DNA of 64,000 nucleotides from an uncultured bacterium (GTDB lineage Bacteria > Patescibacteriota > Minisyncoccia > UBA6257 > 2-01-FULL-56-20), in contig OY970382.1 in NCBI GenBank assembly GCA_963719425.1, positions 71,888 to 135,887 on the forward strand, read 5' to 3'. The position numbers were made by a program, and so were the translations under genes. A model generated the notes under the pieces. It did not search any database and was not told the DNA's origin. It was given only the letters and a program-made list of their open reading frames with translations. Positions 6,006 to 63,000 of this stretch are shown here, piece after piece (the first letter of the stretch is position 1; each line of letters begins with the position of its first letter).

Positions 6006-7727
6006 ATGCCGTCGCCCACGACCGAACTCATCAAGAGCAAGCTGGACATCGTGGATTTTCTCCGCGGCTATTTGACGCTCATGCCCGCGGGGAAAAATTT
6101 CAAGGCGCTGTGCCCGTTCCACAAAGAGAAGACGCCGTCCTTCATGGTGTCTCCCGAGCGGCAGTCGTGGTATTGCTTCGGCTGCGGGATCGGGGGTGAC
6201 ATCTTCGGCTTCGTGATGCGCTACGAGAACATGGAGTTCGGCGAGGCGCTCCGCCTGCTCGCCGAAAAAGCGGGTGTGGAACTGCGCCGCGAGAATCCCG
6301 CCGAGTACCGCTATGCCGGCCTGCTTTATGATTTGAACGAAGCGGCAAAAAATTATTTCAGGAAGGCGCTCGCGGCGGCACCCATCGCAAAAAAATACCT
6401 GGCTGAGCGCGGCCTCACGCCGGAAACGATTGAAGAGTTTGAACTCGGTTGGGCGCCGAACGAGCCGGAGGCGCTTTCCATGTTCCTTTTGAACTCTGGC
6501 AGCGCGCCGCAAGATCTCATCCAGGCCGGGCTTTCCATAAAGACCGAGCGCGGCCTGATGTTGGACCGCTTCCGCGGGCGCATCATGTTCCCGATCCATA
6601 ATCACCAGGGCAAGGTGGTTGGTTTTACCGGCCGCATCCTGCCGCAGATAGAAAAAACACTCACTGCAAACAGAGGCCAAGAGGTCGCGAAATATGTGAA
6701 CAGTCCCGAGACGCCGATTTTCCAGAAGTCGCGCCTTCTTTACGGATTTTGGAAAAGCAAGGATGCCATCCGCGAGGCGAAGTCGGCCTTCCTCGTAGAA
6801 GGTCAGATGGACTTTTTGATGAGCTGGCAGTCGGGGGTGAAGCACGTGGTCGCAAGTTCGGGCACGGCGCTCACCGCTGACCACCTGCGCTCCCTCCGTC
6901 GCCTCGCCGACGAATTAATAGTAAGCTTTGACAATGACATCGCCGGTTCCGACGCTGCGGAGCGGGCGATCGATCTTGCCGAGGCGAACGACTTCTCGGT
7001 GAAGGTGGCGATCATCAAGGATTTCAAGGATGCAGCCGATGCCGCGCAGGCGGATCCCGCAAACGTGCAAAAGGCGGTCGCCGGCGCCGTGGCTGCCCCC
7101 CTCTTTTATTTTGAAAAATACTTGCCGGAGGATCCAACAGGGCTCAAGACCCGCGAGGGCCTGCGGCAGCTGCGTGCAGTGCTCGGGAAATTGAAGAACA
7201 TTGCGAGCCCCGTGGAGCGCAGCTTTTGGCTGAAGGATCTTTCTGCGCGCACGGGCATCGCGGAAAAGACATTGGAGGAGGAGGCTGCGAGGGCGAACAC
7301 CGTGGGTATTCCGGTTGCCGCGCCGAAAGAAGAAGCGGCGTCAAGGCGCGAGGTAGGGCGCGCCGAGCTCATCGGTGAAGCATTGCTCGCCGCCGCGCTC
7401 GCAAAAAATGATTTCACAATATTTGATGATTGCATGACATTTTTGAATCCTGTCCAAAGAGAAATTCTCCGCATATTAAAGAGTGGAAAGACAAAGAGCG
7501 AAGACCTCTCGCTCGACGAGGCAATCGGGCTTATCGTGCTCCGCGCCTCGGGCGACGTCCCACACGAGGAAATTGAGGCGCTAAGGGCCGAACTTGCAAA
7601 GGAATATTATAAAGAGCGCCGCAAGATTCTCGCGCAGGCGATAAAGAATGCCGAGGCGAACGGGAACGATGTGGAGCTTAAAGCGGCGCTTGAGGAACTC
7701 GTGAGCTTGCCAAACGGCGAAAAATAG
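6006..7727 (+). CDS. dnaG: DNA primase
   Basis: CHC2 zinc-finger CPFHKEKTPSFMVSPERQSWYCFGCGIGGDIFGF. TOPRIM motif FLVEGQMDFL...SFDNDIAGSDAAERA. Confidence 0.9.
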   Translation: MPSPTTELIKSKLDIVDFLRGYLTLMPAGKNFKALCPFHKEKTPSFMVSPERQSWYCFGCGIGGDIFGFVMRYENMEFGEALRLLAEKAGVELRRENPAEYRYAGLLYDLNEAAKNYFRKALAAAPIAKKYLAERGLTPETIEEFELGWAPNEPEALSMFLLNSGSAPQDLIQAGLSIKTERGLMLDRFRGRIMFPIHNHQGKVVGFTGRILPQIEKTLTANRGQEVAKYVNSPETPIFQKSRLLYGFWKSKDAIREAKSAFLVEGQMDFLMSWQSGVKHVVASSGTALTADHLRSLRRLADELIVSFDNDIAGSDAAERAIDLAEANDFSVKVAIIKDFKDAADAAQADPANVQKAVAGAVAAPLFYFEKYLPEDPTGLKTREGLRQLRAVLGKLKNIASPVERSFWLKDLSARTGIAEKTLEEEAARANTVGIPVAAPKEEAASRREVGRAELIGEALLAAALAKNDFTIFDDCMTFLNPVQREILRILKSGKTKSEDLSLDEAIGLIVLRASGDVPHEEIEALRAELAKEYYKERRKILAQAIKNAEANGNDVELKAALEELVSLPNGEK

Positions 7728-7748: not shown

Positions 7749-8975
7749 ATGCCCACCCATCGCAAGAAGCCCAGGAAGAGGCCGCAAAAAAAAGGCGGCG
7801 CGAGGAAGCGCACCCTCAAAAGAAAGGCTGCGAAAACGAAGACTGCGAAACGCCCAAAAGGCAAGAAAAAGCCGCTTTCAAAGCTTGAGAAGGCCATCAA
7901 GGCCAACGCGGCGGAGATTGAAGAACTTATTGAGCGCGGCCGGCCGCGCGGATTCGTCACGGACAACGAGATCCTTTATTATTTCCCGAAGATAGAGGAT
8001 AGCGTGGAATTGCTTGACGAGATCTACGATCGGCTGGAAAAAGCTGGGATCAAAGTGATTGAAACAAGCGCGCTTATAGATTTCTCAAAAGACGAAGGAG
8101 AAAAGAATATTGACGAGTCGCTCGCGTTTGAAGGCGACGTGCCGGACGCCGTGCAGATGTATTTGAAGGAGATCGGGAAGACGCCGCTCCTTTCAAAAGA
8201 CGAGGAACGCGAGCTCGCGAAGCGCTCGGAGAAAGGAGACGAGGATGCACGCCAGAAACTGATGAAGGCGAATTTGCGGCTCGTGGTTTCCATCGCAAAG
8301 CGTTATGTGAACCGCACGCCGCATTTGAGCATCCTTGATCTTATCCAAGAGGGGAATATCGGCCTCTCGCGCGCGGTGGAAAAATTTGACTATCGGCGGG
8401 GATTCAAGTTCAGCACGTACGCCACGTGGTGGATCCGTCAGGCGATCACGCGGGCGCTTGCCGACCAGTCGCGCACCGTCCGCATTCCGGTGCACATGGT
8501 AGAAACCATTTCCAAATATACGCAGGTGCGTCGGCAGCTTATCCAGGAACTGGGCCGCGATCCTTTGGCGGAAGAGATCGCCGCGGAGATGGGCATAGAC
8601 GTGGACAGGGTGCGGCACATCCAGAAGATTTCGCAGGAGGTGCTTTCCATTGAAACGCCGATCGGCGACGAGGAGGATTCCACGCTTTCCGACTTCATCC
8701 CTGACGAACGAAATGCAACGCCATCCCAGCTCACCGCGCGCGCGATGCTCCGCGACCTCATCCGCGAGATTATGATTGACCTCACGGAACGTGAGCAGCA
8801 GATTTTGAAGATGCGATTCGGCCTTGATGATGGCATCAGCCACACGCTTGAGGAAGTGGGGAGGGCCTTCGGCGTCACGCGCGAACGCATCCGGCAGATT
8901 GAAGCGAAGGCGTTGGAGAAGATTCGCGAGCACGGCAAGGCGCCGGCGCTGGAGGGCTTCGAGAGCCTCACGTAG
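7749..8975 (+). CDS. rpoD: RNA polymerase sigma-70 factor RpoD with unusually basic N-terminal extension
   Basis: Regions 2-4 are clear ([52 protein letters not shown], region 4 [26 protein letters not shown]). Directly downstream of dnaG, the classic MMS operon. The first ~45 aa are Lys/Arg-rich. Confidence 0.9.
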
Positions 8976-9125
8976 CCTGCACCGCATAGTTTTTGAGAGT
9001 GAGAATCCATCGCTCCTGCGGTGATGGTTTCTTGCCGCTCGCCCCGATTGCCGAAAACACCCCAATGTGTTTTCGGGCCAAGCCAATCGGGGCTGCGCGA
9101 TCCTCTCAAAAACTATGCGGTGCAG
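8973..9125. repeat. ~150-bp long inverted repeat with 28-bp perfect terminal arms and nested inner hairpins (MITE-like or structured RNA/terminator)
   Basis: gtagcctgcaccgcatagtttttgagag ... ctctcaaaaactatgcggtgcaggctac. Internal sub-hairpins ccatc/gatgg, ccccgattg/caatcgggg and ccgaaaacac/gtgttttcgg. Confidence 0.5.
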
Positions 9126-9199
9126 GCTACTAGCGTTCGAGTCCAGCCGCCAGACGGACAATAATAGCCCCTGGAAAGATTTTTTGATATAGTCAAACC

Positions 9200-10030
9200 A
9201 TGACAGAAGGGAATGAAACGACGCGAATAGAAACGGAAGACCAGAATGTTTCCACATTGTCGACCCTGATAGCCCACTTCGACGATATGAGAATGCTACC
9301 CGATAGAAAACCTGCCGTGGGGGATTTTGGACCCGTTTTAGATAGCGAATCTTTCCGCGAACATTCCTTCAAACAAAGCAAGGATGGATTCCTTTCTGTT
9401 ATCGACAAGGAAAAGGTAAAACGGTATTTGTCAGCCGAGGAGTCAACACAGGAAGCCTTCGCGTATTTGAAAAAAATAAGACGATTCGGCCAGATGTTGC
9501 GAGGCAATTATAGATTTTCAGATTCTTCACATGCAGTTCCGGAGAAGTTGCATCACTTTCTGCGCCTGCTGGGAGATTATAACGACCGCTATTGGTTGCC
9601 GGAGAAACAGGATGTGTCTCAATTACGCGCGGCGCTGGAATATATTGACGGGAAAGAATTAGTTCTTAATGGGGTCAGTAACCAAAATTTTGAGGAATAC
9701 GTGAGAAAAACCTTGGACGTTATAAAAACTCTTTTAAAGGAACCCGAGTTGCCAGCAAAAGAATTTCACGAGCTGAGAAAGCAGGTTCATCTATTTGCCG
9801 ATTTTCTGGCGGTTGCGGCATCGGAAAATTACAGAGGAGATATACATTGGCTATTTTCTTCGGTGTCGTCGCTGTCCCGCGAGCTGGGCGAACAACACGA
9901 CGATCTTGTTCGGCGGGATCTGCGTAAGGAGATAGACTATCAAAACGCCGTCGTGCAAGTAAACCCCAATATTCGTCAAGAATTTGAAAAATTAGAGCCT
10001 TATATAGAAAAAGTGACGGGGATTCAATAG
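9200..10030 (+). CDS. Hypothetical protein (276 aa, predicted all-alpha, no recognisable family), in AT-rich islet
   Basis: Long ORF with coding-like composition. Region is clearly AT-richer than its flanks. Confidence 0.5.
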   Translation: MTEGNETTRIETEDQNVSTLSTLIAHFDDMRMLPDRKPAVGDFGPVLDSESFREHSFKQSKDGFLSVIDKEKVKRYLSAEESTQEAFAYLKKIRRFGQMLRGNYRFSDSSHAVPEKLHHFLRLLGDYNDRYWLPEKQDVSQLRAALEYIDGKELVLNGVSNQNFEEYVRKTLDVIKTLLKEPELPAKEFHELRKQVHLFADFLAVAASENYRGDIHWLFSSVSSLSRELGEQHDDLVRRDLRKEIDYQNAVVQVNPNIRQEFEKLEPYIEKVTGIQ

Positions 10031-10077
10031 GAATTCTTTTAATAATTTTTTAATGTCCGGCGAGTATAATGTTCGTG

Positions 10078-10608
10078 ATGGACATCATAGGGATTTTGAA
10101 TTATCTCGGCATAACGCATGACAGGGCGCTTCCCTTTGCCATACTCATAGTGGCGATGGTTTATATTAGCTATGCTTTTACCGCGCCGATAAAACGATCT
10201 GTCTCAAAAATATCCAACGCGATATTGGAAATACAGACGATATTCCATCAGGATGGCGTGGATTTGAAATGCCATCTTGCGGAAGGAACAGGCAGCCCAT
10301 TGCGACCCACTCATTATGGGAAACAACTCATCGTGGAGAGCGGCCTGGAAACCATCTTGAATGACAAGAAGGATTTTTTGAGGACGGTGTTGACCAAGAA
10401 ACTTCCGGAGAACTATACGGAATACGACGTGCAAGAGAAAGCCCGCGAGCTTTTGATTGCGTTGAAAAGAGATCCATTGATGAATCCCGTCAAAACATAT
10501 GCGTACGAAAATGGAAAAGACATAGATATTATTTTGCGGATCGGAGGCCTGTGGCTGAGGGATGATTTTATCGGACAGGAAAGGAAGATAGTGCCCGAAA
10601 AAGGATAG
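10078..10608 (+). CDS. Hypothetical membrane-anchored protein (one N-terminal TM plus ~140-aa soluble domain)
   Basis: ORF track 10069..10608. The ATG at 10069 overlaps the TATAAT at 10060-10065, so 10078 (MDIIGILNYLG...) is the likelier start and may be leaderless. Confidence 0.45.
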   Translation: MDIIGILNYLGITHDRALPFAILIVAMVYISYAFTAPIKRSVSKISNAILEIQTIFHQDGVDLKCHLAEGTGSPLRPTHYGKQLIVESGLETILNDKKDFLRTVLTKKLPENYTEYDVQEKARELLIALKRDPLMNPVKTYAYENGKDIDIILRIGGLWLRDDFIGQERKIVPEKG

Positions 10609-10696
10609 GGCGGTTTTAACAATTTTTTAATGTGCCGTGAGTATAATGCTTTGCAAAGGTCGCAAAGCAGGCGTTGTTATTTTTATGGATACGCAT

Positions 10697-10936
10697 ACAA
10701 TGGAATGTGTGAAGACAAAATATAAATTCCCTTACATAATTGAACCGGACGAAGGCGGGTTTTATGCTACCTGCCCGGCCCTCAAAGGGTGTTCCACGCA
10801 GGGCGATACGTATGAAGAGGCACTCGCAAATATCAAAGAAGCAATCGAGGGCTATTTAGAGTGTCTTAAAAATAACGGAGAAGAAATTCCAACATCGTCA
10901 CATCATGGCTTGCCTACGGTAGAGATCGCCGTCTGA
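10697..10936 (+). CDS. hicB: HicB-family antitoxin (UPF0150/RNase H-like fold)
   Basis: YKFPYIIEPDEGGFYATCPALKGCSTQGDTYEEALANIKEAIEGYLECL is the typical HicB N-domain. Start uncertain (ORF track 10637). Confidence 0.6.
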   Translation, partial: TMECVKTKYKFPYIIEPDEGGFYATCPALKGCSTQGDTYEEALANIKEAIEGYLECLKNNGEEIPTSSHHGLPTVEIAV

Positions 10937-10939
10937 TCT

Positions 10940-11146
10940 ATGCCAAAACTTCCCCGCCTCACCGCACGACAAATAGCGGCTCGGTTAGAAGCGTGCAGGT
11001 TTTCGCTTTCGCATCAGCGCGGGAGCCATAGATTTTATCGTGATGCCGCCGGAAGATTAGTGACCGTCCCATTCCATGGCTCGCGCATCATCTGTCCCAA
11101 AACGCTGAAAGACATCATGCGCCAGGCTGGCATCGCCGAATGGTGA
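10940..11146 (+). CDS. hicA: HicA-family mRNA-interferase toxin (YcfA-like)
   Basis: LTARQIAARLEACRFSLSHQRGSHRFYRDAAGRLVTVPFHGSRIICPKTLKDIMRQAGI fits the HicA consensus (RGSH..Y......VPxH.....GTL..IL.QAG). Confidence 0.65.
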   Translation: MPKLPRLTARQIAARLEACRFSLSHQRGSHRFYRDAAGRLVTVPFHGSRIICPKTLKDIMRQAGIAEW

Positions 11147-11187
11147 AGCTTTGCAATTCCGCCGGTTTTATCTTAACTTTGAGATAC

Positions 11188-13020
11188 ATGGAATCAGCCG
11201 AAATCCGCAGGAAATTTCTAAAGTTTTTTGAGGAACGCGGGCATGTTGTGATGCCGTCGTCGTCCTTGATCCCAGACGACCCGTCAGTTCTCTTCACGAC
11301 CGCCGGCATGCAGCAGTTCAAGAAATACTATACGGGCGAGTTGGATGCCCGGAAGGATTTTCGTCTGTCCGACGGCACGCCGGCAAAAGGCATCGTTTCC
11401 ATCCAAAAATGTTTTCGCACCTCCGATATTGACGAAGTGGGCGATGCATCACACCTCACCTTCTTTGAGATGCTCGGCAACTTCAGCTTCGGCGGCTACG
11501 GAAAAAAAGAGGCGATTCGATATGCGCATGAATTTATCACTAAAGAAATGGAGCTTGCGATTGATTATGTGTCGGTCTTTGAAGGCGACCGCGACGTGCC
11601 AGCGGACGAAGAATCGGAGAAGATGTGGAAATTGCTTGATCCAAAGATCAAGATTGAACGGCATGGTCGTGAAGACAATTTCTGGGGTCCGACCGGCCCC
11701 GAGGGCCCCTGCGGCCCTACGGTGGAGATTTATGTGAAAAATGGCACGGGGAAGAGCATAGAGGTTTGGAACCTCGTTTTCAATCAATGCTACCGGCACG
11801 CGGACGGACGGCTCGCGCCGCTCAAGACGCTGGGCATTGACACCGGCATGGGCCTTGAGCGCCTTGCGATGGTCGTACAAAAAGCGCCCACAATTTTTGA
11901 GACGGATTTGTTTGCGCGGGTGATGCAAACGTTGCCGGCGGGAATTTCACCGATGGAAAAGAGAATCATTGGCGACCATAGTAGAGGGATTGTATTTTTA
12001 GTCGCGGATTGCGTTCGGCCGTCTAATAAGGGAGTTGGTTATGTGCTAAGAAGGTTGCTGAGGCGCTTGCTGAGGTATGAGGGGGAAAAGGTTATTTCTA
12101 AAGAGCTGTTTGAGAATCTTGCGACATCAATGAGCGATTACTATGGGAGATTTTACGGAGGACTCGATGGCAGGGAGGTTCTTGAGGTTATTAAGGCCGA
12201 GAGAGAAAAGTTCTCAACAAATCTTAAAAGTGCTACAAAGAACTTTATTAAAATTGCAGGCGAATACGATTTATACAGCGGCAGTCCAACAGAGATGGTA
12301 TGGAGAAAAAAGTATCAAAACGCCACTATTGCCAGTTTTATTTTCAAGATGTACGAGAGTTGCGGAAGTCCGTTTGAAATGACGGTGGATATGTTGAGGC
12401 CACACATGGAGGATTTCAATGAAGATAATTTGAAGGCAGTCCGCACCCTTTTTGATGAGAGGTTCAAAAAGCACCAGGAAATCTCCCGCGCGGGGGCGGA
12501 GAAAAAGTTCGGCGGACACGGGTTGGTTTTGGACACGGGCGAACTCAAAGCGGGAAGCGAAGAGGAGATGAAAAAAGTGCTGCGCCTGCACACGGCGACG
12601 CACTTGCTCCAGCAGGCGCTCCGCGAGGTGCTCGGCCCCGAGGTGCATCAGATGGGATCGGACATCACCCCCCTGCGCACGCGCTTTGACTTTTCCTTCC
12701 CGCGCAAAATGACGCCCGAGGAGGTTAAAAAAACAGAGGAGATCGTGAATCAAAAGATAAAGGAGGACTTGCCGGTGGGATTCAAGGAAATGCCGAAAAA
12801 CGAGGCGGAAAAACTGGGCGCACTGCACTTCTTCAAAGAGAAATATCCCGAGAGGGTGAAAGTGTATTACGTGGGCCGCGACTTCACACACGCATGGAGC
12901 AAGGAGTTCTGCGGCGGACCGCACGTCGCGCATACGGGAGAGATTGGCCATTTCAGAATTGTGAAGGAAGAAGCGGTTGGCGCCGGCATCCGGCGCATCC
13001 GCGGGACGTTGGATAATTGA
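11188..13020 (+). CDS. alaS: Alanine--tRNA ligase, short form (catalytic plus editing domains; no C-Ala domain)
   Basis: MESAEIRRKFLKFFEERGHVVMPSSSLIPDDPSVLFTTAGMQQFK...FFEMLGNFSFG (class II catalytic core). HTATHLLQQALREVLG...CGGPHVAHTGEIG (editing/SAD domain). 611 aa versus ~870 for canonical AlaRS. Confidence 0.85.
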   Translation: MESAEIRRKFLKFFEERGHVVMPSSSLIPDDPSVLFTTAGMQQFKKYYTGELDARKDFRLSDGTPAKGIVSIQKCFRTSDIDEVGDASHLTFFEMLGNFSFGGYGKKEAIRYAHEFITKEMELAIDYVSVFEGDRDVPADEESEKMWKLLDPKIKIERHGREDNFWGPTGPEGPCGPTVEIYVKNGTGKSIEVWNLVFNQCYRHADGRLAPLKTLGIDTGMGLERLAMVVQKAPTIFETDLFARVMQTLPAGISPMEKRIIGDHSRGIVFLVADCVRPSNKGVGYVLRRLLRRLLRYEGEKVISKELFENLATSMSDYYGRFYGGLDGREVLEVIKAEREKFSTNLKSATKNFIKIAGEYDLYSGSPTEMVWRKKYQNATIASFIFKMYESCGSPFEMTVDMLRPHMEDFNEDNLKAVRTLFDERFKKHQEISRAGAEKKFGGHGLVLDTGELKAGSEEEMKKVLRLHTATHLLQQALREVLGPEVHQMGSDITPLRTRFDFSFPRKMTPEEVKKTEEIVNQKIKEDLPVGFKEMPKNEAEKLGALHFFKEKYPERVKVYYVGRDFTHAWSKEFCGGPHVAHTGEIGHFRIVKEEAVGAGIRRIRGTLDN

Positions 13021-22696: not shown

Positions 22697-23294
22697 GAAA
22701 AGGGCCATCATTGTGCATTGTTGGGAAGGATATCCGGAGTATTGTTGGTATCCGTGGGTGCAGCATCAACTTGAAGCAAAGGAATTTTTGGTGCAGGTCC
22801 CTGCTTTTCCGGAGACAGAAACTCCCCAGCAGGCAAAATGGGTTCCCTTCCTCGCGGAAAAAGTGGACAAGCCCGACGACGATCTGTTCCTTGTGGGTCA
22901 TAGCGTGGGATGCATCACCATTCTCCGATATCTTGAAACACTCAAGGAGGGTGAACGGGTAGGGGGCGTGGTCTTGGTCGCGGGATATACGGACGACCTC
23001 GGCTACAAGGAACTCAGTAATTTTTTCCAAGCCCCGCTTGACTTCCGGAAGATCAAATCCAGATCAAAGTGCGGTTTCGTTGCCATCCATTCCGATGATG
23101 ATCTGTATGTTGATCTCAAATTCGCCGCTGTTTTTAAAAAAGAACTCGGCGCCGAAGTGATTGTCAAGCATGCGATGGGACATTTCTCCGGTCCGATTGG
23201 AAAAGAAGGGTCGTGCACGGAACTTCCGGACGTCGTTCGGTCTATAGAAAGATTATCCGACGCGCGCTTCAAGCACGCGATGGCCAGCCCTTAG
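22697..23294 (+). CDS. Alpha/beta serine hydrolase, YdeN/RBBP9 (Ser_hydrolase) family
   Basis: IIVHCWEGYPEYCWYPW...LFLVGHSVGCITILRYLE...VVLVAGYTDD...FVAIHSDDDLYV...HAMGHFSG (GxSxG nucleophile elbow, Asp, His). Paralogous to the domain inserted in leuS. Confidence 0.65.
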
Positions 23295-23314
23295 TGTTAG
23301 AATTTAAACAACCC

Positions 23315-24460
23315 ATGTTTAAAAACCCTCTGAGGGGCGTTTACATAATGAACGCAATCTATGGTCTCGCAGGGTCTTTCGTGGGAATTTTTATACCGAT
23401 ATATCTGCTTCGAAAAAACCTGAATCCCGCCAACGTTTTCGGTTTCTATCTGGTCTACACCGTCGGCATTCTTATCTTCTTCTTTCTTGCCAATCATATC
23501 GTCCGCGCGCTTGGTCTCCGGAAGACCGTGCTCCTCGGCTATCCATTCCTCTTTTTATATTTCTTTCTGCTGTATACGCTCGACCAATATGGCACTCCGC
23601 TTTATGTCCTCGCTATCATAAATGCCTTTCAGACGTCACTCTATTGGTTTCCTCTTCACATGTGGCTTACGAATACCTCGCGCGAAGGAAGCATTGGAAA
23701 TGATCTAGGAAAATTCTTCGCGGCTTCACAAATAGTTGGACTGTTTGCGCCGGCCATCGCAGCATTTATCGTTCTTTTCTTGGGGTTCAAGGCGCTCTTT
23801 ATCTTTGCCGGCGTAATTTATCTCATATCGGCAATCCCTATGTTCTATTTGCCGGAATTCCCGTTCAAGGAAAAAATCCGAATGGACAGATTCATAATGT
23901 TATTGAAAGAATATCCGCATTATATTGTTGCAGAGATCTTTGAGAATATACGGGAAGATGCAGAAGCCATAATCTGGCCTGTCTTTATTTATTTAAGCTT
24001 CCGAAATATTCTTTCAATCGGTTACATCGGGACCATAAGCGGTGTGGGCAGCATTTTATTCATATGGCTCGTCGGAAAATATACCGATAAAATAGATAAG
24101 CGAAAACTGCTTGGTGTCGGTGCGATTATCATGGTTATTACCTGGATTCTTCGGTTATTCGCATATACTCCGCTTTCAGCCTATGTGCTCACTCTTGTCG
24201 CGGCGTTCTTTGCGGCACTTATCCTTATCCCTATCAACACTATCGTATACGGCGTAGCAAAGCGTGAAGGCGCTCCCACCTTTATCCTCTTTCGAGAATT
24301 CGGCGTCACGCTTGGGCGACTTCTTCTTTATCTCTTTGCCTTTTTAGTGCTCTCCTCCATAAACTACATATTCGTATTCACCGCAATAGCGTGCTTCGGT
24401 TTGTTTTACCTTTCACGAAAAAATCTGGAAAGGCCGGAACTGACTGTTATCACACCATGA
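23315..24460 (+). CDS. MFS transporter
   Basis: 12 predicted TM helices (MFKNPLRGVYIMNAIYGLAGSFVGIFIPIYLL...). Start chosen downstream of the hydrolase stop. Confidence 0.7.
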   Translation: MFKNPLRGVYIMNAIYGLAGSFVGIFIPIYLLRKNLNPANVFGFYLVYTVGILIFFFLANHIVRALGLRKTVLLGYPFLFLYFFLLYTLDQYGTPLYVLAIINAFQTSLYWFPLHMWLTNTSREGSIGNDLGKFFAASQIVGLFAPAIAAFIVLFLGFKALFIFAGVIYLISAIPMFYLPEFPFKEKIRMDRFIMLLKEYPHYIVAEIFENIREDAEAIIWPVFIYLSFRNILSIGYIGTISGVGSILFIWLVGKYTDKIDKRKLLGVGAIIMVITWILRLFAYTPLSAYVLTLVAAFFAALILIPINTIVYGVAKREGAPTFILFREFGVTLGRLLLYLFAFLVLSSINYIFVFTAIACFGLFYLSRKNLERPELTVITP

Positions 24461-24903
24461 AGATAAAAGACCGCTTCCGGCCGTTCGCAGCCGTATATGT
24501 ATTGTTCGTGAGGAACGACAAAATTTTAATGGCGCGCCGCGCCCATACTGGTTATCAGGATGGAATGTACAGCCTGCCGGCAGGCCATATTGACGGCAAT
24601 GAAACATTAAGAGCCGCGGCAGTACGTGAAGCCCGCGAGGAAACGGGAGCCACGATTGCCCAAAGAGACCTTGAACTAAAGCTCACCATGCACCGGATTC
24701 ATGACCGGGAATATCTTGACGTTTTCTTTCTTGTGAAAAAATGGCGCGGCACGATGCGGAACCGCGAACCGCACAAGTGCGACGATTTGAGTTGGTTTCC
24801 ACTCAACGCTATTCCTAAAAATACCATTCCCTACGTCCGCGAGGCGATCAGGTGCTATCGGAAGGGGATCCGGTATTCGGAATTCGGATGGGCAGGGCGG
24901 TAG
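24458..24903 (+). CDS. NUDIX hydrolase
   Basis: Nudix box GHIDGNETLRAAAVREAREETG. Confidence 0.75.
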
Positions 24904-28619: not shown

Positions 28620-28867
28620 TAGGGAGGGTTGTCAATAGATTGTAGAGGAGAGCAACCTGCGCCGTCCAGGTGCGTTTGTGCACCAAACTGTAGTCGGATG
28701 GGGTATAATGATAGTGTCCCGCCCCAGATCTCGGATCAAATAATTATAAAAAGGGAGGGCGAATCACTGCGGTCCGTGGACCACAGTTGAGCCCACCCAC
28801 TTGGCGTGAAGCCAGAGATCAGGCGGGATAAGCAAGAAGCCGGCACAATGCCGGCCTTTTGCTATCC

Positions 28868-29037
28868 CGCTGGTAATTTTGTTGTTCAAACCCGCTTCGA
28901 CTCGGGCACTGCGTTCACTCGCTTACGAAAATTTGACACCCTCCGCAGCAAGCACGGGGGTCCTGTCAAATTTTCTGCTCACTCGCGCAGTGCTGTTTCC
29001 TCGCCTCCGCTAGGTTCTCACAACAAAATTACCAGCA
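28868..29037. ncRNA. Candidate structured RNA element: three nested perfect helices (17 bp, 8 bp, 12 bp) in an ORF-free spacer; identity unknown
   Basis: gctggtaattttgttgt (28870) pairs with acaacaaaattaccagc (29021). gcactgcg pairs with cgcagtgc. gaaaatttgaca pairs with tgtcaaattttc (28927/28965). Confidence 0.3.
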
Positions 29038-29052
29038 CGACAGCAAACGCCG

Positions 29053-30570: not shown

Positions 30571-31365
30571 ATGAAGAAAACAAGGTTTCGGAATGGTATC
30601 CGACATTCTGCAGTAGTCCGAGAGCGCGCAAGGCAACTACGGCACGATGGGGCAGCGCACCGAGAGATTGCAAAAGAATTAGGAACAAGCGTAAGTACGG
30701 CACATTTGTGGACCAAAGATATTACATTATCGGCGGAACAAAGAGTGGCGATTCTTGCCCGTGCAGCGCGTCATGCATTCTCGATTGAGCGCCGGAAAAA
30801 ATTGAGCGAGGCCGCTAAAATTCGTTTGGCGAAATATCGTGAACGATATACCAAAGCAGACCTCTTAAATAAAATCACAGACTTCTATCGGCGTTATGGC
30901 CGGATTCCGTTAAAACGCGAGTTTAATATGTACGATACCTACCGTCGACATTTCGGGAGTTGGAATAGCGCTATCCGTGCGGCGGGATTCAATACGAATC
31001 CACAAATTTTTTCATATAAATTCTTCGCTCGCGACGGCCACCGTTGTGATTCATTCACGGAAAGAATAATTGACGATTGGCTTTCGGAACGGAATATTTC
31101 TCATGAGAGAAATTGGAAATATCTTGGCACCAAAATGACGGCAGATTTCTTTGTACAGCCGGGGATCGTCATTGAATTTTTTGGGCTCGCCGGAGTTCAG
31201 AAAAGATATAACGAGCTTATTGAGGCGAAACGGGGATTTTGCGCTGGCCGCGGATTAGTGCTCATTGGATTATATCCATATGATGTATTTCCTGAAGACC
31301 ATTTAAATATAAAATTGGGTTTTCTCCAAGTGATAGTTGCAACAAAAACCGTTTTCTTGGTATAA
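30571..31365 (+). CDS. HTH DNA-binding domain plus DUF559/Vsr-like (PD-(D/E)xK) endonuclease-domain protein; mobile-element-associated
   Basis: N-terminal HTH HREIAKELGTSVSTAHLW. Homing-endonuclease-associated-like FGSWNSAIRAAGF. C-terminal ERIIDDWLSERNISHERNWKYLGTKMTADFFVQPGIVIEFFG fits DUF559. AT-rich, adjacent to tRNA-Pro. Confidence 0.55.
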   Translation: MKKTRFRNGIRHSAVVRERARQLRHDGAAHREIAKELGTSVSTAHLWTKDITLSAEQRVAILARAARHAFSIERRKKLSEAAKIRLAKYRERYTKADLLNKITDFYRRYGRIPLKREFNMYDTYRRHFGSWNSAIRAAGFNTNPQIFSYKFFARDGHRCDSFTERIIDDWLSERNISHERNWKYLGTKMTADFFVQPGIVIEFFGLAGVQKRYNELIEAKRGFCAGRGLVLIGLYPYDVFPEDHLNIKLGFLQVIVATKTVFLV

Positions 31366-31372
31366 TGCCTAT

Positions 31373-31732
31373 ATGAACCGCGAGATGCCGCAGCCAAGAA
31401 AAAATGGATCCGAACTCCCACCAGGGATAAGGCCTCCGTCGGAAGTGAGCTCTGGCCCATTAAGGAGCCCCCTAAATAAGGTGTTACAGAAGGAAACAAA
31501 AATTCCGGAAGGAAAAGAATGGGTGAAGGGCTTGATTGATGAAATCCCGGTCGCTTATCTTCCAATAGTCACCGACTTCTTGAGGAGGGTTCCTCCTAAT
31601 AAAGCTGAAGAAGCGGCACGAAAACTTTTTGACGTCATTACGGAGATGACCAACGGCGTGCTTCGGTCGCCCAATCCCAAAGAAACACTTCAAGAGTGCA
31701 TCAGAGAAGCGGAGAAACGCATAGGAAACTAA
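31373..31732 (+). CDS. Hypothetical small protein
   Basis: ORF 31337..31732 with internal start MNREMPQ. No recognisable motifs. Confidence 0.35.
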   Translation: MNREMPQPRKNGSELPPGIRPPSEVSSGPLRSPLNKVLQKETKIPEGKEWVKGLIDEIPVAYLPIVTDFLRRVPPNKAEEAARKLFDVITEMTNGVLRSPNPKETLQECIREAEKRIGN

Positions 31733-31941
31733 GCACCCTTTGCGGCTGCTTCATTCGTTGCCTTGCCCTTGCTCTGCGTCTTCAGGCAGTTTGTGCAGAT
31801 GAGCTCCCGCACGCCATTCACTTTAGCGTATTGCAGGTTGGGATACTTGCGGCTCCAGTTCACAGGGTTATAGTGGCCGCGCAACAGGCGGTGCGCGCCG
31901 CCCATTTGCGATCCCTTATGGCAGATGGCACATTGTCTCAT
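31729..31941 (-). CDS. rpmB: 50S ribosomal protein L28-like (zinc-ribbon)
   Basis: MRQCAICHKGSQMGGAHRLLRGHYNPVNWSRKYPNLQYAKVNGVRELICTNCLK matches the bL28 pattern C.ICGK....G...SH...R.W.PNLQ...V.G....VC..CLK. Confidence 0.6.
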   Translation of the reverse strand: MRQCAICHKGSQMGGAHRLLRGHYNPVNWSRKYPNLQYAKVNGVRELICTNCLKTQSKGKATNEAAAKGA

Positions 31942-51272: not shown

Positions 51273-53702
51273 TCATTCCTTGGTTAATAACCTCACCACT
51301 CCCTCATCCGCATCTACTTCAACAAGGTCGCCGTCTTTCAAGACTTGAGTAGCGATCTTCGTACCGATGATACATGGAATCCCCATTTCGCGGGAGATGA
51401 TTGCGGCATGTGAGGTAACTCCGCCTTCATCAGTTATGATCGCAGCAGCAAGTTTCATAGCGGGCACCATTTCCGGCCTCGTCATCGAAGAAACCAGAAC
51501 GTCACCTTCTTCCATGTTTGCCATGTCATGGATTTTCAATATCTTTTTTACGTGACCGCGAACTTTACCGGTTGAAGCTATCATTCCCTTGATCTCCTTC
51601 GCTTCGCCCAATTGGCGCTGGAAAAAGTCGAGCGCCTCTTGGGCCAACGTGCCACTTACAACCTTAAAACCGTCAGCGGTATGAATACAGACGCATCCTT
51701 TGTGCCGCTCATCAAAAACTTTCTTATCAAGATTTCCAGCAAGTGCGTCGCGGAACTCGGGGTAGATTGAATACTGAAGCTTCTCAAATGGGATGCCGCC
51801 GCGCCGTTCGGCTTCTTTCAGAAACTGGAACTGATAATAGTTAGAAATAAGAACATATTTTTTGCGCGTATCTTGAAGTTCAAAGAATTCGTCCATCACA
51901 TACAGCAACGTTCGGCGCCATGGTGATAGCTTGTATTTCTTTATCAGATTCGCTTTTTCGGTGAGGAGTTTTTTGCGGTGGTCTTTGGTTGGTTCCACCT
52001 CTTTTTTCGCATCCTCGCGGAGCACAGACGCAAAATCGTCGGCGGTGAGGCGAATAGCTTTAGCGTAATTGTTGTGAATGTAGAAAAACCTGTTTGCATG
52101 CTGTTCAAGCACCCTGCGATCAAGCTTGCCGGTTTTCCGGAAAGTCTGGACAAGTTTCTCCCGCGCAATACCCTCTTCTTCAATAAAAGAAAGGTGGCGT
52201 GGAGAGAGCAGTTTCGGAAAATCGACCGTAAAATTCTTGCCAAGAACTTTCTGAAATTCCGGCGTAAGATAACGATCCGCATGCATCGAAATGGCATCGC
52301 CAAGCACCATGAAGTATTTAAACTCGTCGACGTACTTCCGGTAGAAATCATCGTAGAGTTCCGCAATCTTCTCGTTCGAGAGTTTTTTGAGGTCGGTTTC
52401 GTTGATGCGCTTCAGGACGGCATCAAACGCTTTGACCTTCGCGTCACACTCTTTTCGTAGCTTTTCTAAGTAGTGCTTGTCTTTTTTGAGACGTCCTAAG
52501 AACTCCTCGCGGATGCGCGTGAGATCATTGTCGTTCCAATACCAGTGAACATAATCGCTCTGGACGAAAAACAGTGTAATTGAGACGGCATCGCCAAAGA
52601 AATCGCGCATCGCTATGCCGGTTTCCCCCACCGGAAAGAACGGATGGAGAACTCCATGGAAACCCTTATACGTCCACGTGGAGTCATTGAGATGATATTT
52701 CTCCCTGAGAGAGATCGTTCGCCGTCCCTCGCCTTCGATGCTTGTTTTCAATGTCGTAATCGGCCTACTTTGAGCGACGTAGAATTTCCCCTTTTCTTGT
52801 GCCCATTCGATGTCGCACGGAAAGCCGTAGTGATTTTCTATGCGAAGGATAAGTTCGCTGAGTTCAAGAATCTCTTTATCTGAAAGAACCTGCCGTCCGC
52901 CGACGGCGTTTGAGAGATTGCGCCATCCGGTACCGCCCGTCTTGCCGCGATAGAGCGCCCGAGTTTGTTCTGAAACATTTTTTTCTATGATGCGGCGAGG
53001 CGCTTTCTCAACCACGTAGCTATTGGGCGTTACGGAACCGGAGACAATTGCCTCGCCAAGCCCGAACCCTGCCTCAATGATAATTTGGTTCCTGTCCTGG
53101 GTCACTGGATGCACCGAGAAGGCAATACCCGACGTTTCGCTTTCTACCATTTTTTGCACTACGACGGCCACGGAAATCTTCTGGCCATGTAGTCCTTTTT
53201 CAAAGCGGTAGAAAATCGCGCGAGGTGTGAAGAGCGACGCCCAACACTTCTGTACGTTGAGAAGGAGTGTCTTCTCTGTTGTATTCAGATAGCTCTCAAG
53301 TTGCCCTGCCCAGGCAGCGCTTGAGGAATCTTCTGCCGTTGCGCTTGAACGCACCGCCACATACTTTGCGCCAAGTTTTTTGAACGATATCTCAATCTCT
53401 TTCGCTATATTTTTCGGCATTATGGCGTTCTCTACGAGCGCTCGGATCTTTTCGGAGGCGTGTTCAACAATATGGATTTCTTTATGATTCACCGCATCGA
53501 GCGCGGCATCAATTTCAGCATCGAGATCGGTTTCCTCGAGGAAGCGCTCAAAAGCGGCGGCAAGAACGACAAAACCGGGCGGAACCGGGATGCCTGCCCG
53601 TGTCATCTCGCCCAAAGAAGCACCTTTGCCACCAGCGGTCGCGGCATCGTTTTTGCTGATTCCACTAAAAAACTCGATTAAGCCTGCTTTGTTTCTCGGC
53701 AT
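51273..53702 (-). CDS. PEP-utilising enzyme, rifampicin-phosphotransferase-like architecture (PPDK_N ATP-grasp, central domain, C-terminal mobile His domain; no TIM-barrel)
   Basis: N-term AGGKGASLGEM...VAVRSSATAEDS. C-term GGVTSHAAIISREMGIPCIIG. ~810 aa. Confidence 0.7.
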   Translation of the reverse strand: MPRNKAGLIEFFSGISKNDAATAGGKGASLGEMTRAGIPVPPGFVVLAAAFERFLEETDLDAEIDAALDAVNHKEIHIVEHASEKIRALVENAIMPKNIAKEIEISFKKLGAKYVAVRSSATAEDSSSAAWAGQLESYLNTTEKTLLLNVQKCWASLFTPRAIFYRFEKGLHGQKISVAVVVQKMVESETSGIAFSVHPVTQDRNQIIIEAGFGLGEAIVSGSVTPNSYVVEKAPRRIIEKNVSEQTRALYRGKTGGTGWRNLSNAVGGRQVLSDKEILELSELILRIENHYGFPCDIEWAQEKGKFYVAQSRPITTLKTSIEGEGRRTISLREKYHLNDSTWTYKGFHGVLHPFFPVGETGIAMRDFFGDAVSITLFFVQSDYVHWYWNDNDLTRIREEFLGRLKKDKHYLEKLRKECDAKVKAFDAVLKRINETDLKKLSNEKIAELYDDFYRKYVDEFKYFMVLGDAISMHADRYLTPEFQKVLGKNFTVDFPKLLSPRHLSFIEEEGIAREKLVQTFRKTGKLDRRVLEQHANRFFYIHNNYAKAIRLTADDFASVLREDAKKEVEPTKDHRKKLLTEKANLIKKYKLSPWRRTLLYVMDEFFELQDTRKKYVLISNYYQFQFLKEAERRGGIPFEKLQYSIYPEFRDALAGNLDKKVFDERHKGCVCIHTADGFKVVSGTLAQEALDFFQRQLGEAKEIKGMIASTGKVRGHVKKILKIHDMANMEEGDVLVSSMTRPEMVPAMKLAAAIITDEGGVTSHAAIISREMGIPCIIGTKIATQVLKDGDLVEVDADEGVVRLLTKE

Positions 53703-60050: not shown

Positions 60051-63000
60051 ATGTCCAAATACGAACCGAAGGATTTTGAGGCGAAATGGCAGAAAAAATG
60101 GCTGGAGGAAGGTGTCTATGAACCGGACTTAGATAAAGCAAAGAAACCGTTCTACAACCTAATGATGTTTCCGTACCCCTCGGCGGAGGGGTTACATGTG
60201 GGAAACATGTACGCGTTCACGGGCGCGGACATCTACGGGCGGATGAAGCGCATGCAGGGCAATGACGTGTTTGAACCGATCGGCCTGGACGGTTTCGGCA
60301 TCCATTCGGAAAATTATGCGCTGAAGATCGGTGCGCATCCGATGGACCGGGCAAAGGTTTCGGAGGAGCGTTTTTATAAACAGCTCGCCGCCATCGGCAA
60401 CGGTTTTGCGTGGAACGAGCGATTGGAGACCTATGACCCCGAATACTACCGCTGGACGCAGTGGATCTTCGTCCAAATGTGGAAGCACGGCCTTGCGTAC
60501 CGAAAAAAGCAGTCGGTCAATTGGTGCCCGAAGGACCAGACGGTGCTTGCCGATGAACAGGTGATCGCGGGCGCCTGTGAGCGCTGTGGGACGCCGGTCA
60601 TCCAAAGGGAGCTTGAGCAATGGTTTTTCAAAATCACCGAGTACGCCGGCCGTCTGCTCAAGAATCTGGAAACGTTGGATTGGTCGGAAAAAGTGAAAAT
60701 CGCGCAGAAGAAATGGATAGGGAAGTCGGAAGGAGCGGTAATAGAATTTCCGATAAAAACTGATGTAAAAAAAGTTGTACTGATGCATGGTAAAGATACG
60801 AATCCCAGTCAAAAATGGTACCCCTGGATGATTAAAGAAATTAAAAAAAGGAAAATTGAATGTGTCGCTCCTTATTTGCCCAATCCAAACAATCCAGAGA
60901 TTGATGCTTGGATTAAAGAAGTTGAAAAGACACATCCGGACAAAAATACTGTTTTAGTAGGTCACTCCCGCGGCGGGGTCGCGATTTTGCGATGGTTGGA
61001 AAGTATGCCGAGGGGCGATAAGGTTAAGCAGGTGATCTTGGTAGCGGCCAACAGAGGAGACAATAAAGAATCGGATGGTAAGTTTTTAGGGAAACCGTAT
61101 AATTTCGAAAAAATAAAATCGCATTGCGATGATTTTGTGGTTTTACATTCCCGCGATGACGAATGGGTGCCCTTTGAAGTGGGAGAATATCTTGCGAAGG
61201 GGTTAAACGCCGATTTCCTGATTTTTGATGGGAAGGGGCATTTTGGAAAATATTTAAAATCGCCCGAAATTCCAGAAATCATCGCTAAACTTTTCCCTTC
61301 GATTAGGGTTTTCACGACGAGGCCGGATACGCTTTTCGGCGCGACCTACATGGTGCTCGCGCCCGAGCATCCGTTGGTTGCGCAGCTTGAATCTCGTATC
61401 GCCAATTTGAGCGAGGTGAAGAAATATATAAAGAATGCGAAGGATAAAACCGACGCCGAGCGCATCGCGGAAGGAAAAGAGAAAAGCGGCGTGGAGCTGA
61501 AAGGCATCAGGGCCATCAATCCGGCCACCAAAGAAGAAATACCGATTTGGGTCGCCGACTATGTTTTGGCGATCTATGGAACGGGCGCCATTATGGCCGT
61601 TCCCGCGCACGACGGGCGCGACTTTGCGTTTGCAAAGAAGTTCAGGCTGCCTATCAGGAAAGTGGTAATTCCCGTTTTGCGCTCGCAATCGGCCATAGCG
61701 GGGGCTACCGGGATTGCGGAGAGCGGGATTTCGATTGAAAGCGAAATGTGGGAAGGGGACGGCGAGCTTGTGGATTCCGGGGAGTTTGATGGCATGGATT
61801 CTGAAAAAGCGAAGTGGGAAATCGCGAAATTTGTGGGCGGCGAGCGGAAAACGACCTACCGCCTGCGCGACTGGCTTATCTCGCGCCAGCGCTACTGGGG
61901 GCCGCCGATCCCGATGGTGCACTGCGAAGCGTGCGCGCGTGCGAAAAAAGGCGAGCATGCGGACATGCCCGGTTGGTATGCGGTGCCCGAGGAAGACCTG
62001 CCCGTGAAGCTTCCCTATGTGAAGGATTTCCGTCCGACGGGGAGCGGTGTTTCACCTCTCGCTGCAGTGAAGGAATTTTATGAGACCAAGTGCCCCGCGT
62101 GCGGCGGCCCCGCGCGGCGGGAAACGGACGTATCGGACACATTCCTGGATTCGGCGTGGTACTATCTCCGCTATCTTGATCCGCAGAATACGAAGGGAGC
62201 GTTCAATTACAAGCGGACTGAGAAATGGCTGCCGATAGAAAAAGGAACCGCCACGCGGCTCTACACGGGCGGCGCGGAGCACTCGGTACTTCACCTGCTC
62301 TATGTGCGATTCGTGGCGATGGCGCTTGCCGATTGGGGATTCGTCGTCTCGCCGGAACCGTTCAAAAAATTCCGCGCGCACGGGTTGCTCATCAAAGAAG
62401 GCGCCAAAATGTCCAAATCCAAAGGCAACGTCATCAATCCTGACGAATACATTCAGAAATTCGGCGCGGACACGCTGCGGATGTACCTTATGTTCTTGGC
62501 GCCATTTGAGGACGGCGGCGATTTCCGCGACCAGGCGATCCTCGGTATTCTCCGTTTTTTGGAGCGTGTGTGGAAATTGGGCGAGGCGGTCGCCTCCGAA
62601 AAACGGATGGACAGCGCCCCCACGAGCGCAAAAAGAAAAGGAAGCAGAGTGATCGCGATTGCAGTGAAAAAGGTATCCGAGGACATCGAGCGGCTGCACT
62701 ACAACACCGCGGTGAGCGCGCTCATGATATGCCTCCGCGCGCTGGAAGAGGAACGTGAAGAGGGATATGTCGCCCGCGGGGACTTTGAAACATTTCTGAA
62801 ACTGCTCGCGCCCTTCGCGCCGCACATCGCAGAGGAACTTTGGCGCAGCGCCCTCGGCGAGGTTGCCTCCGTCCATCGCGCCGCATGGCCAGTATACGAT
62901 CCGGCGCTTATCGCGCAGGAGTCGATCGCGCTCGTCGTCCAGGTGAACGGCAAGGTGCGCGACGTAATTGCGGCGGATGCCTCCACCATCACCGAGGCGG

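Follow-up and report, generated by a model that had tools for sequence, protein, structure and literature searches.

The interval between the stop codon of rpoD and the start codon of alaS is probably (rough probability 0.7) a hot spot of recombination and gene turnover, which carries three functionally independent modules with a promoter of their own each. The first gene, P1, would be a stand-alone single-gene cassette that consists of an open reading frame and an extended -10 promoter, the position of which suits a leaderless transcript. Its product would be an all-helical protein with two repeats, which is distantly related to CHAD proteins and may bind a phosphate-rich ligand. The second gene, P2, is predicted to encode a membrane protein with an N-terminal anchor and a C-terminal helical domain that faces the cytoplasm. 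The third module, the gene pair hicBA, would be transcribed from a copy of the P2 promoter, and this transcription probably reads through into alaS.

Layout of the interval and its promoter-like elements

The window, i.e., the complete stretch of 64,000 nucleotides that was analysed, stems from a Minisyncoccia-like member of the Patescibacteria with a genome of about 0.9 Mb. The features are compiled in Table 1. It was verified that the left flank is formed by dnaG (6006-7727) and rpoD, and Pfam matches bore out all earlier assignments of the flanks and the toxin-antitoxin genes (dnaG, rpoD, HicB, HicA and alaS). The true start of alaS is likely the one that begins with MESAEIRRKF.

Table 1. 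Features of the rpoD-alaS interval and its flanks (positions in the window).
Feature	Position	Strand	Description
rpoD	7749-8975	+	Primary sigma factor, Pfam Sigma70 regions 1.1-4; left housekeeping flank
Long Y-shaped hairpin	8972-9130		159 nt; perfect 28-bp basal stem, two internal sub-hairpins
P1 promoter-like element	9180-9199	+	TTTTTTGATATAGTC (9180-9194), extended -10 (TGATATAGT); read from the sequence
P1	9200-10030	+	276-aa ORF, predicted all-alpha; putative distant CHAD-like family member
Direct repeat D1, copy 1	10037-10071	+	AT-rich tract and TATAAT (10065-10070); precedes P2
P2	10078-10608	+	176-aa ORF, predicted single-pass membrane protein, one N-terminal hydrophobic helix
Direct repeat D1, copy 2	10614-10648	+	TATAAT at 10642-10647; precedes hicB
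hicB	10685-10936	+	83-aa short antitoxin; PF15919 41.8 bits (cut-off 27); PHROG 497 E 1.8e-20
hicA	10940-11146	+	68-aa toxin; PF07927 52.9 bits (cut-off 27); PHROG 353 E 8e-12
alaS	11188-13020	+	Pfam tRNA-synt_2c, tRNA_SAD, PF01411; right housekeeping flank

In the sequence-only reading the interval had been described as an AT-rich islet, and this shift in composition was directly observed when GC and GC3 were calculated. The GC content is 0.39-0.47 over positions 9100-10900 and 0.55-0.60 in the flanks, and positions 9101-11000 form the longest low-GC run of the window (GC 0.446 versus a mean of 0.545, sd 0.049). The GC3 values are 0.47 for P1, 0.54 for P2 and 0.45 for hicB, and 0.71 for dnaG and rpoD. 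ARAGORN detected neither a tRNA nor a tmRNA, and therefore a tRNA-type attachment site is lacking.

A perfect hairpin of 150 bp had been proposed to bound the islet on the left. The hairpin is real and very stable, with a dG of -109.4 kcal/mol and a z-score of -12.9 in comparison with shuffled sequences, but perfect pairing is limited to the 28 bp of the basal stem (8972-8999 with 9103-9130), and the 103 nt that separate the two arms fold into two imperfect sub-hairpins. The TAG stop codon of rpoD lies inside the left arm, and a U-tract is absent 3′ of the structure. The role as a boundary had to be given up, because related genomes without P1 also have long hairpins of other sequence after rpoD. 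At the loci of P1 homologues a comparable upstream hairpin was not found, and therefore the hairpin is not a component of the P1 cassette. Neither further copies of it within the window nor an exact match of the 23-nt core of its arm in the JGI metagenome contigs were found, and thus there is no sign that it might be a multi-copy mobile element. An Rfam search of positions 8000-12000 had a plant microRNA as its sole match (29 bits versus a threshold of 268), which was rejected as spurious.

Nearly identical elements of about 35 bp had been reported before P1, P2 and hicB. This is true for P2 and hicB, which are preceded by two copies of the direct repeat D1 (35 nt each, 89% identical), while the element of P1 differs. 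A third copy of D1 was not found, even when three mismatches were allowed. The idea that one element co-regulates all three units was thus abandoned, as the repeat is common to P2 and hicB only. As a -35 hexamer is missing from all three promoter-like elements, a consensus promoter scanner called none of them. A 7-nt inverted repeat (GCTTTGC-N7-GCAAAGC, 10648-10668) follows the second copy of D1 and is a candidate operator.

The -10 hexamer of P1 (9188-9193) is arranged as TATAGT-N6-ATG. The sequence TT(C/T)TTTGATATAGTC is also present upstream of P1 homologues in two unrelated loci (L002, L097), and the homologue in L004 is preceded by TTTGATATGCT-N6-ATG. The start of P2 has the arrangement TATAAT-N7-ATG with the hexamer of the first D1 copy. 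P1 and P2 thus combine a -10 hexamer 5-8 nt before the start codon with the absence of a Shine-Dalgarno sequence, the combination that was used to define leaderless genes, and their spacing is conserved in homologous loci, which suggests that both may be transcribed without a leader. The earlier proposal of leaderless translation is therefore supported for these two genes, but not for hicB, where the TATAAT lies about 37 nt ahead of the ATG. Nor is this geometry a trait of the islet; it is genome-wide, as 24 sites with a -10 hexamer 5-8 nt before an ATG were counted, versus 11 +/- 2.6 expected from shuffled sequences.

Independent gain and loss of the islet genes

The synteny analysis was based on contigs that carry a P2 with 96% identity. 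The comparison with three sister genomes, which have a nucleotide identity of about 87%, directly revealed that the parts of the islet turn over independently. In L087-L096 the nucleotide identity is 86-91% up to position 8971 and again from 10035, so that homology of this group ends exactly at 8971/8972, the edge of the hairpin. The gene order there is rpoD-P2-hicBA-alaS, P1 is absent, and a different hairpin is found in its place; the P2 protein of L087 has 96% identity to that of the window. In L107, P1 is reduced to its last 38 nt, which encode PYIEKVTGIR and the stop, and P2 lacks positions 10378-10604 and is truncated to 99 aa. The hicBA pair is intact in all three lineages, and this includes hicA of L087 and L107, although it was not called as a gene there. 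However, the pair of L107 is a different allele, with an amino acid identity of 64-67%, versus 99% for RpoD among the sister genomes. Both copies of D1 are conserved in L087 and L107, and an identity profile showed that alaS is a mosaic across the sister genomes. Outside this genus alaS is not the next gene after rpoD, as judged from rpoD in 80 genome loci. The absence or deletion of P1, the truncation of P2 and the differing alleles of hicBA supported the earlier view of an accessory islet, one that is compositionally distinct and variably present.

Outside the genus, co-occurrence was analysed at six loci with P1 homologues and at three with P2 homologues. The P1 homologues (L002, L004, L097, L099, L114, L116) have unrelated neighbours and are accompanied neither by P2 nor by hicBA, in the vicinity of the P2 homologues (L102, L104, L105) both hicBA and P1 are missing, and a common partner was not observed at any of these loci.

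These results bear on the proposal that P1, P2 and hicBA form one uncharacterised phage-defence or abortive-infection cassette, in which P1 would be a HEPN-like nuclease. The foreign base composition, the toxin-antitoxin pair beside a membrane protein and the Rx5H string RFSDSSH in P1 had suggested it. The proposal is highly improbable, as it is contradicted by the separate gain and loss of the islet genes in the sister genomes and by the fact that they were never found together at the loci examined elsewhere. In addition, a scan with PADLOC-DB 2.0 yielded no match for P2, HicB and HicA and no significant match for P1. The HEPN reading of the string also failed, because, of the six closest homologues, four have K and two have I at the position of its arginine (R105), and only H111 is conserved; HEPN families are missing from the Pfam, NCBIfam and PADLOC matches of P1, and Foldseek returned neither a HEPN structure nor a nuclease-like match for its fold. 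The label "new defence cassette" was tempting but wrong, and it has now been removed.

The islet findings do not overturn current understanding. They illustrate, at base-pair resolution, the turnover at one hot spot in the ultra-small genomes of Patescibacteria, which affects accessory genes as well as toxin-antitoxin alleles and even a part of alaS.

Products of P1, P2 and hicBA

Remote-homology and structure searches of the first two proteins were successful only in part: sequence profiles linked P1 distantly to CHAD, but Foldseek gave nothing significant, and P2 remained without a match of known function. In accordance with the earlier description of P1 as all-alpha, its predicted structure is all-helical with about nine helices (pLDDT 87.7). 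The P1 family is devoid of annotation and amounts to at least 400 clusters when clustered at 50% identity. The Pfam model of CHAD, the conserved histidine alpha-helical domain (PF05235), matched P1 with 16.6 bits (E 0.008), which is below the gathering threshold of 25.6 bits. Among 121 members of the family, 36 match CHAD at E <= 0.01 (best value 2.7e-8), and four relatives (P0085, P0097, P0093, P0143), which a search with the P1 profile retrieved with E values of 1e-33 to 1e-17, are above the gathering threshold with 27-37 bits; in P0085 and P0097 the match falls within the P1-like region. The top two PDB profile matches of P1 were the CHAD structures 3e0s and 6qv7 (E 0.012). The alignment of P1 with the CHAD structures centres on the motif FHELRK...LGxxHD, the first part of which aligns with LHELRI of CtCHAD. 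R94, H190 and R193 are invariant in the 121 sequences, and the close subfamily additionally conserves K194, R101, H111, H216 and H233.

CHAD is a polyphosphate-binding module, represented by CtCHAD (3e0s/6qv7/6qva) and the C-terminus of ygiF, and it is built of two four-helix bundles with pseudo-twofold symmetry (PMC6537752). The N-terminal and C-terminal halves of P1 could be aligned with each other by hhalign with an E value of 8e-4, but with a probability of only 24%, and this alignment would fit the twofold architecture. A comparison of the P1 model with the PDB using Foldseek yielded nothing significant; CHAD structures (6qva, 3e0s) ranked third and seventh with an E of about 0.5 and a TM of 0.26. 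Foldseek against BFVD was negative as well, PDB searches with the P1 sequence alone and with seven sequences returned nothing, and with the multidomain relatives P0097 and P0093 as single queries, CHAD structures were not reached in the PDB either. P1 had no match in IMG/VR, INPHARED phages and PLSDB plasmids. A sub-threshold PADLOC match of P1 to Cas4 (E 0.025, 13 bits) was regarded as noise. Taken together, the Pfam matches of relatives, the PDB profile matches and the internal repeat suggest that P1 is a distant relative of CHAD domains, while Foldseek did not confirm this.

P1 may thus bind polyphosphate or a similar phosphate-rich ligand. Basic surfaces are needed for polyphosphate binding, and the acidic character of P1 (pI 5.6) argues for caution. 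Binding of a phosphate polymer in a CHAD-like manner would be the first testable annotation for a family of several hundred clusters.

P2 had been read as a protein with a single transmembrane segment, and one N-terminal hydrophobic helix was indeed predicted. Its C-terminal helical domain (pLDDT above 90) is conserved and includes the motifs SPLxPT, YDVQEKAR and GGLWLRDD; it would be cytoplasmic because of the positive-inside rule. A profile search retrieved 152 clusters with 45-65% identity, and each of them has a single domain, a length of about 175-195 aa and neither a fusion nor an annotation. Searches with Pfam on 30 members, with a profile against the PDB, with Foldseek against the PDB and in INPHARED phages yielded nothing. 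P2 represents a family restricted to Patescibacteria-type genomes, for which relatives of known function are not detectable, and this compact, well conserved family, which also occurs on predicted phages, is flagged as fully uncharacterised. Relatives of P2 are present on two predicted viral contigs of IMG/VR, one of them adjacent to an integrase; the viral status of these contigs is a prediction, and few of the neighbouring genes match PHROGs.

HicA proteins are mRNA interferases that are neutralised by HicB, and hicB-hicA of the islet is, by its domain matches, a type II toxin-antitoxin pair. Residues 10-65 of HicA span positions 2-58 of the 58 positions of its Pfam model, the GSH motif is present, and 3 nt separate the stop codon of hicB from the start codon of hicA. 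HicB has an alternative start at 10700 and thus a length of 78-83 aa. It covers positions 1-60 of the 123 positions of PF15919, i.e., the N-terminal HicB fold alone, and Pfam did not match a C-terminal HTH or RHH domain. HicB would therefore be devoid of the C-terminal DNA-binding domain.

P2, hicB and hicA could be seen as a three-gene unit, e.g., a membrane sensor or effector with a toxin-antitoxin system for abortive infection or phage exclusion, which would be co-regulated through the duplicated promoter, with P1 as an unrelated later insertion. Toxin-antitoxin modules often belong to defence islands, the order D1-P2-D1-hicB-hicA with both promoter copies is kept in the L087 group and partly in L107, and the P2 relatives on predicted viral contigs point in the same direction. 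Such a unit is nevertheless unlikely: hicBA is still intact in L107 despite the truncated P2, the three P2 loci outside the genus have neither HicA nor HicB as neighbours and their small neighbouring ORFs are without a Pfam match, the P2 family is free of fusions, and PADLOC was negative. A functional link between P2 and hicBA is still conceivable, as they are adjacent, have promoter sequence in common and occur together in two of three lineages.

A further reading, in which hicBA alone is functional and P1 and P2 are remnants of earlier insertions that decay or have no function, seems similarly doubtful. The fate of both genes in L107 and the lack of annotation of both families would be in line with decay. 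However, both families are conserved, their motifs are invariant, their folds are predicted with confidence, the P2 protein is 96% identical between genomes with a DNA identity of about 87%, and in the window both ORFs are intact and have promoters. The reading of three independent modules was thus preferred. A tentative extension, which is possible rather than probable, would make P1 a large branch of the CHAD superfamily that is enriched in Patescibacteria, has rearranged helices, spreads between genomes as a self-promoted leaderless single-gene cassette and binds polyphosphate or another phosphate-rich ligand; fusions of family members to a ComF-like PRTase and to APH-type kinases hint at such binding. 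In the same extension, P2 would be a new membrane-protein fold that Patescibacteria and their phages have in common and that plays a part in infection or exclusion.

Comparison with known systems

The islet resembles variable intergenic hot spots in its low GC and GC3, its presence/absence polymorphism, its mosaic alleles and its small self-promoted genes. In contrast to such hot spots, an integrase, a transposase, a tRNA and a flanking target duplication are all absent, the sole direct repeat is the promoter duplication that flanks P2, and the mosaicism reaches into the essential gene alaS.

With CHAD proteins P1 would share the all-helical character, the size of about 270 aa, which is that of a "long" CHAD, the stand-alone form, and two repeated halves that each have a (H/K)xxR(K)...LGxxxD motif; the profile matches of P1 to Pfam and PDB are located on this motif, sub-threshold for P1 itself and above the Pfam threshold for some family members. 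P1 differs from them in its score of 16.6 versus 25.6 bits, the low TM and the acidic pI. Furthermore, genes for a polyphosphate kinase or phosphatase or for TTM/CYTH proteins are missing beside P1, and the fusion partners of its family, which also include a ParB-like nuclease, are not CYTH domains.

The HicAB pair agrees with known systems in that both Pfam models are well over threshold, the genes are closely spaced, HicA has its GSH motif, and a palindrome is situated just downstream of the -10 hexamer of the promoter. A DNA-binding C-terminus (RHH/HTH) for autoregulation is typical of HicB, but not universal, and the short HicB of the islet differs in this respect. The antitoxin gene comes first, in contrast to the order hicA-hicB of the classical locus of E. 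coli, and the pair is located directly upstream of the essential gene alaS.

Composition and turnover of the rpoD-alaS interval

The islet between rpoD and alaS, which encodes two unknown proteins (P1 and the single-pass membrane protein P2) and the HicB/HicA pair, had been described from the sequence as AT-rich, and calculation confirmed this. The GC content was 0.39-0.47 at 9100-10900 compared with 0.55-0.60 in both flanks, and the longest low-GC run of the window was 9101-11000 (GC 0.446; window mean 0.545, sd 0.049). The GC3 values of P1 (0.47), P2 (0.54) and hicB (0.45) were likewise below the 0.71 of dnaG and rpoD, and therefore the composition shift is real. Four other low-GC patches (0.45-0.47; 23201-24500, 30601-31800, 51401-52700 and 60501-61500) might be further accessory islets. 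P1 and P2 were both found on one contig of 887,956 bp, and the nearest named relatives carry the labels Minisyncoccia or Patescibacteria.

Coordinates of features in the window and at compared loci (L numbers) in other genomes
Feature	Coordinates	Remark
dnaG	6006-7727	left of rpoD
rpoD	7749-8975	upstream of hairpin
Hairpin	8972-9130	at rpoD 3' end
P1, 276-aa ORF	9200-10030	
P2, 176-aa ORF	10078-10608	
hicB	10685-10936	
hicA	10940-11146	
alaS	likely true start 11188	right of hicA; protein beginning MESAEIRRKF
ATGs with a -10-like hexamer 5-8 nt upstream (examples)	20146, 22695, 31373, 39702, 44392, 49921, 53821	
Long, very stable hairpins directly after rpoD	L087 7955-8131; L007 2783-2985; L018 about 9120-9270	related genomes
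Extra dnaG-rpoD DNA	L087 5523-6698; L092 4285-4758	sister genomes
Recurring NUDIX/His_Phos_1/HD/pyrophosphatase neighbourhoods	L114 5908-6962; L002 14069-16557; L116 3364-3891	

Sister genomes, with about 86-91% DNA identity to the window, were reached via contigs carrying a 96%-identical P2. In one group (L087-L096) the gene order was dnaG, about 1.2 kb with extra small ORFs, rpoD, P2, hicB, hicA and alaS. The homology to the window broke exactly at 8971/8972 and restarted at 10035, and in place of the 1,063 nt with the hairpin and P1 there were 174 nt, which fold into a long hairpin distinct from that of the window (dG -81, z -8.8). In a third lineage (L107, a contig of 898,885 bp) the last 38 nt of P1, encoding the conserved C-terminus of the P1 family (PYIEKVTGIR and stop), were joined directly to the repeat D1 that precedes P2. 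Because L107 retains this remnant, an ancestor that it shares with the window lineage possessed P1, which L107 then lost by deletion. In L107, P2 is also decaying, the loss of 10378-10604 having left a stub of 99 aa.

HicB and hicA were intact in all three lineages. The hicBA module of L107 (8376-8835) and that of the window (10685-11146) shared a protein identity of only 64-67%, compared with 99% for RpoD and flanks of about 90% in DNA; it seems that the module was exchanged and not vertically inherited. The mosaic extended into alaS: 11300-11900 had 84-91% identity to L107 and only 56-73% to L087, while the AT-rich stretch 11900-12500 (GC 0.41-0.47) had 38-59% identity to both alike. Among the sister genomes the AlaRS proteins were only 60-70% identical, versus 99% for RpoD, which suggests an allelic replacement inside this essential gene. 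From the presence/absence and identity profiles it was concluded that the rpoD-alaS interval is a hot spot of independent gain, loss and exchange. The interval thus holds a real accessory islet, distinct in composition and variable in presence, the contents of which had mostly been described correctly.

Further variation was observed nearby. The dnaG-rpoD gap, 21 nt in the window, holds about 1.2 kb of extra DNA in the sister genomes; its small ORFs of 125, 61 and 74 aa had no Pfam match, and one variant of the insert encodes a PBECR3-domain gene. The gap is thereby another variable site within this operon. In L107, some 3.4 kb upstream of dnaG, a CLIPPER-domain gene and the ORF after it are separated by an IS481-type transposase gene (rve; L107 390-1340). 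A gene with an AIPR (abortive-infection) domain is called in the sister genomes downstream of rpsI, some 9 kb beyond alaS (L087 18309-18712).

The rpoD hairpin and the promoter elements

The hairpin at the end of rpoD, taken at first for a perfect 150-bp structure, is real and extremely stable (dG -109 kcal/mol, z = -12.9), but perfect pairing is limited to the basal 28 bp, with two imperfect sub-hairpins formed by the 103 nt that separate the arms. No U-tract trails it, Rfam contained no family for it, and neither a second copy in the window nor an exact match to a 23-nt core of its arm in JGI metagenome contigs was found. The L087 and L007 hairpins (Table) are homologues of one another that share conserved blocks and show four compensatory base pairs, and the hairpins after rpoD in related genomes might constitute a structured element conserved at the 3' end of the dnaG-rpoD operon. 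The window hairpin had no detectable sequence in common with these hairpins. It looks like an rpoD 3'-end feature of conserved position and replaceable sequence, not like the boundary of a mobile element, and could possibly act as a terminator, processing site or stabiliser. Another long inverted repeat of the window is located at 28858-29047 (35-nt arms, 83% complementary, 120 nt apart).

A near-identical element had been proposed ahead of both unknown genes and hicB. This held for P2 and hicB, which are preceded by the 35-nt direct repeat D1 (10037-10071 and 10614-10648), but not for P1, upstream of which no copy was found with three mismatches allowed. P1 is instead preceded by TTTTTTGATATAGTC, an extended -10 element 6 nt from the ATG. 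The same type of element precedes P1 homologues at unrelated loci, and therefore this promoter travels with its gene. At P2 the layout is TATAAT-N7-ATG, which is kept in the sister genomes, and no Shine-Dalgarno sequence was visible upstream of P1 or P2. The proposed leaderless geometry thus applies to both genes, but not to hicB, where the palindrome GCTTTGC-N7-GCAAAGC follows the same promoter copy and about 37 nt separate the TATAAT from the ATG. Nor is it specific to the islet: at 24 sites in the window, versus 11 +/- 2.6 in shuffles, an ATG has a -10-like hexamer 5-8 nt ahead of it. Of the 24, 16 begin an ORF of 60 codons or more, and many have a preceding TG or GG. Judged from these motifs, the genome appears to make common use of leaderless-type starts.

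Independence of the modules and the P2 family

The sequence-only reading had likened the islet to a phage-defence or abortive-infection cassette. P1 homologues were found in six other genomic contexts with unrelated neighbours (L002/L003, L004-L006, L097, L099-L101, L114 and L116), and neither P2 nor HicAB was beside them in any of the six. Conversely, neither HicAB nor P1 adjoined the P2 homologues in L102, L104 and L105, where the adjoining small ORFs had no Pfam match. PADLOC returned only one noise-level match for all four islet proteins. The missing co-occurrence and the PADLOC result argue against a single multi-gene system, and together with the separate turnover in the sister genomes they contradict the cassette. 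Three independent modules make up the islet as a patchwork; it is not a new defence system.

In the P2 model, a hydrophobic helix at the N-terminus (about residues 14-58) is followed by basic residues and a compact helical domain (pLDDT above 90) with the invariant motifs SPLxPT, YDVQEKAR and GGLWLRDD. Pfam, PDB sequence profiles and Foldseek yielded nothing. A profile search revealed 152 clusters, all of about 175-195 aa and free of fusions or annotations, almost all on very short contigs of Patescibacteria-type metagenomes. Relatives on two predicted viral contigs (IMG/VR), one near an integrase and one with the soluble domain only, make a phage-related origin plausible.

The novelty is modest: a CHAD-like assignment for the large unannotated P1 family, an entirely uncharacterised membrane-protein family also encoded by predicted phages, and a clear view of gene and allele turnover beside essential genes in a reduced genome.

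P1 and the CHAD domain

A first database search with P1 returned only seven proteins. When 1.84 billion cluster representatives were searched with a profile, at least 400 matched at E <= 1e-3, and 177 had E <= 1e-10; most are about 270 aa long. A few were fusions, with APH-type kinase domains (P0085, P0097, P0134), a ComF-like PRTase (P0114) or a ParB-like nuclease (P0200). NUDIX, His_Phos_1 and HD genes and a weak pyrophosphatase match recurred near P1-family genes, no farther than a few kb away (Table); the sample is too small, and an association is not claimed.

P1 had been suspected to contain a HEPN motif (RFSDSSH). This was abandoned, as the closest homologues have K or I in place of its arginine and there was no HEPN match anywhere. 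The AlphaFold2 model is confident (pLDDT 87.7, pTM 0.84) and consists of helices only. Pfam CHAD matched P1 itself with 16.6 bits (E 0.008), below the threshold of 25.6 bits, and 36 of 121 family members at E <= 0.01 (best 2.7e-8). Four multidomain relatives passed the threshold, and in P0085 and P0097 the match falls inside the P1-like region. With the 121-sequence profile, the top PDB matches were the CHAD structures 3e0s and 6qv7 (E 0.012), with FHELRK...LGxxHD aligned on LHELRI...LGTFVD. R94, H190, R193, G125 and D129 are invariant in these 121 sequences. Foldseek with the P1 model gave no significant match; CHAD structures ranked 3 and 7 (E about 0.5, TM 0.26).

Taken together, the odds that P1 is homologous to CHAD were put at roughly two in three. 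CHAD domains have a twofold four-helix-bundle architecture and bind inorganic polyphosphate via conserved basic residues (PMC6537752); by this homology P1 might bind a polyphosphate-like ligand. Against the likeness, P1 is acidic overall (pI 5.6). In its favour, the two halves of P1 align with one another (hhalign, probability 24%, E 8e-4), which fits the twofold architecture of CHAD (PMC6537752).
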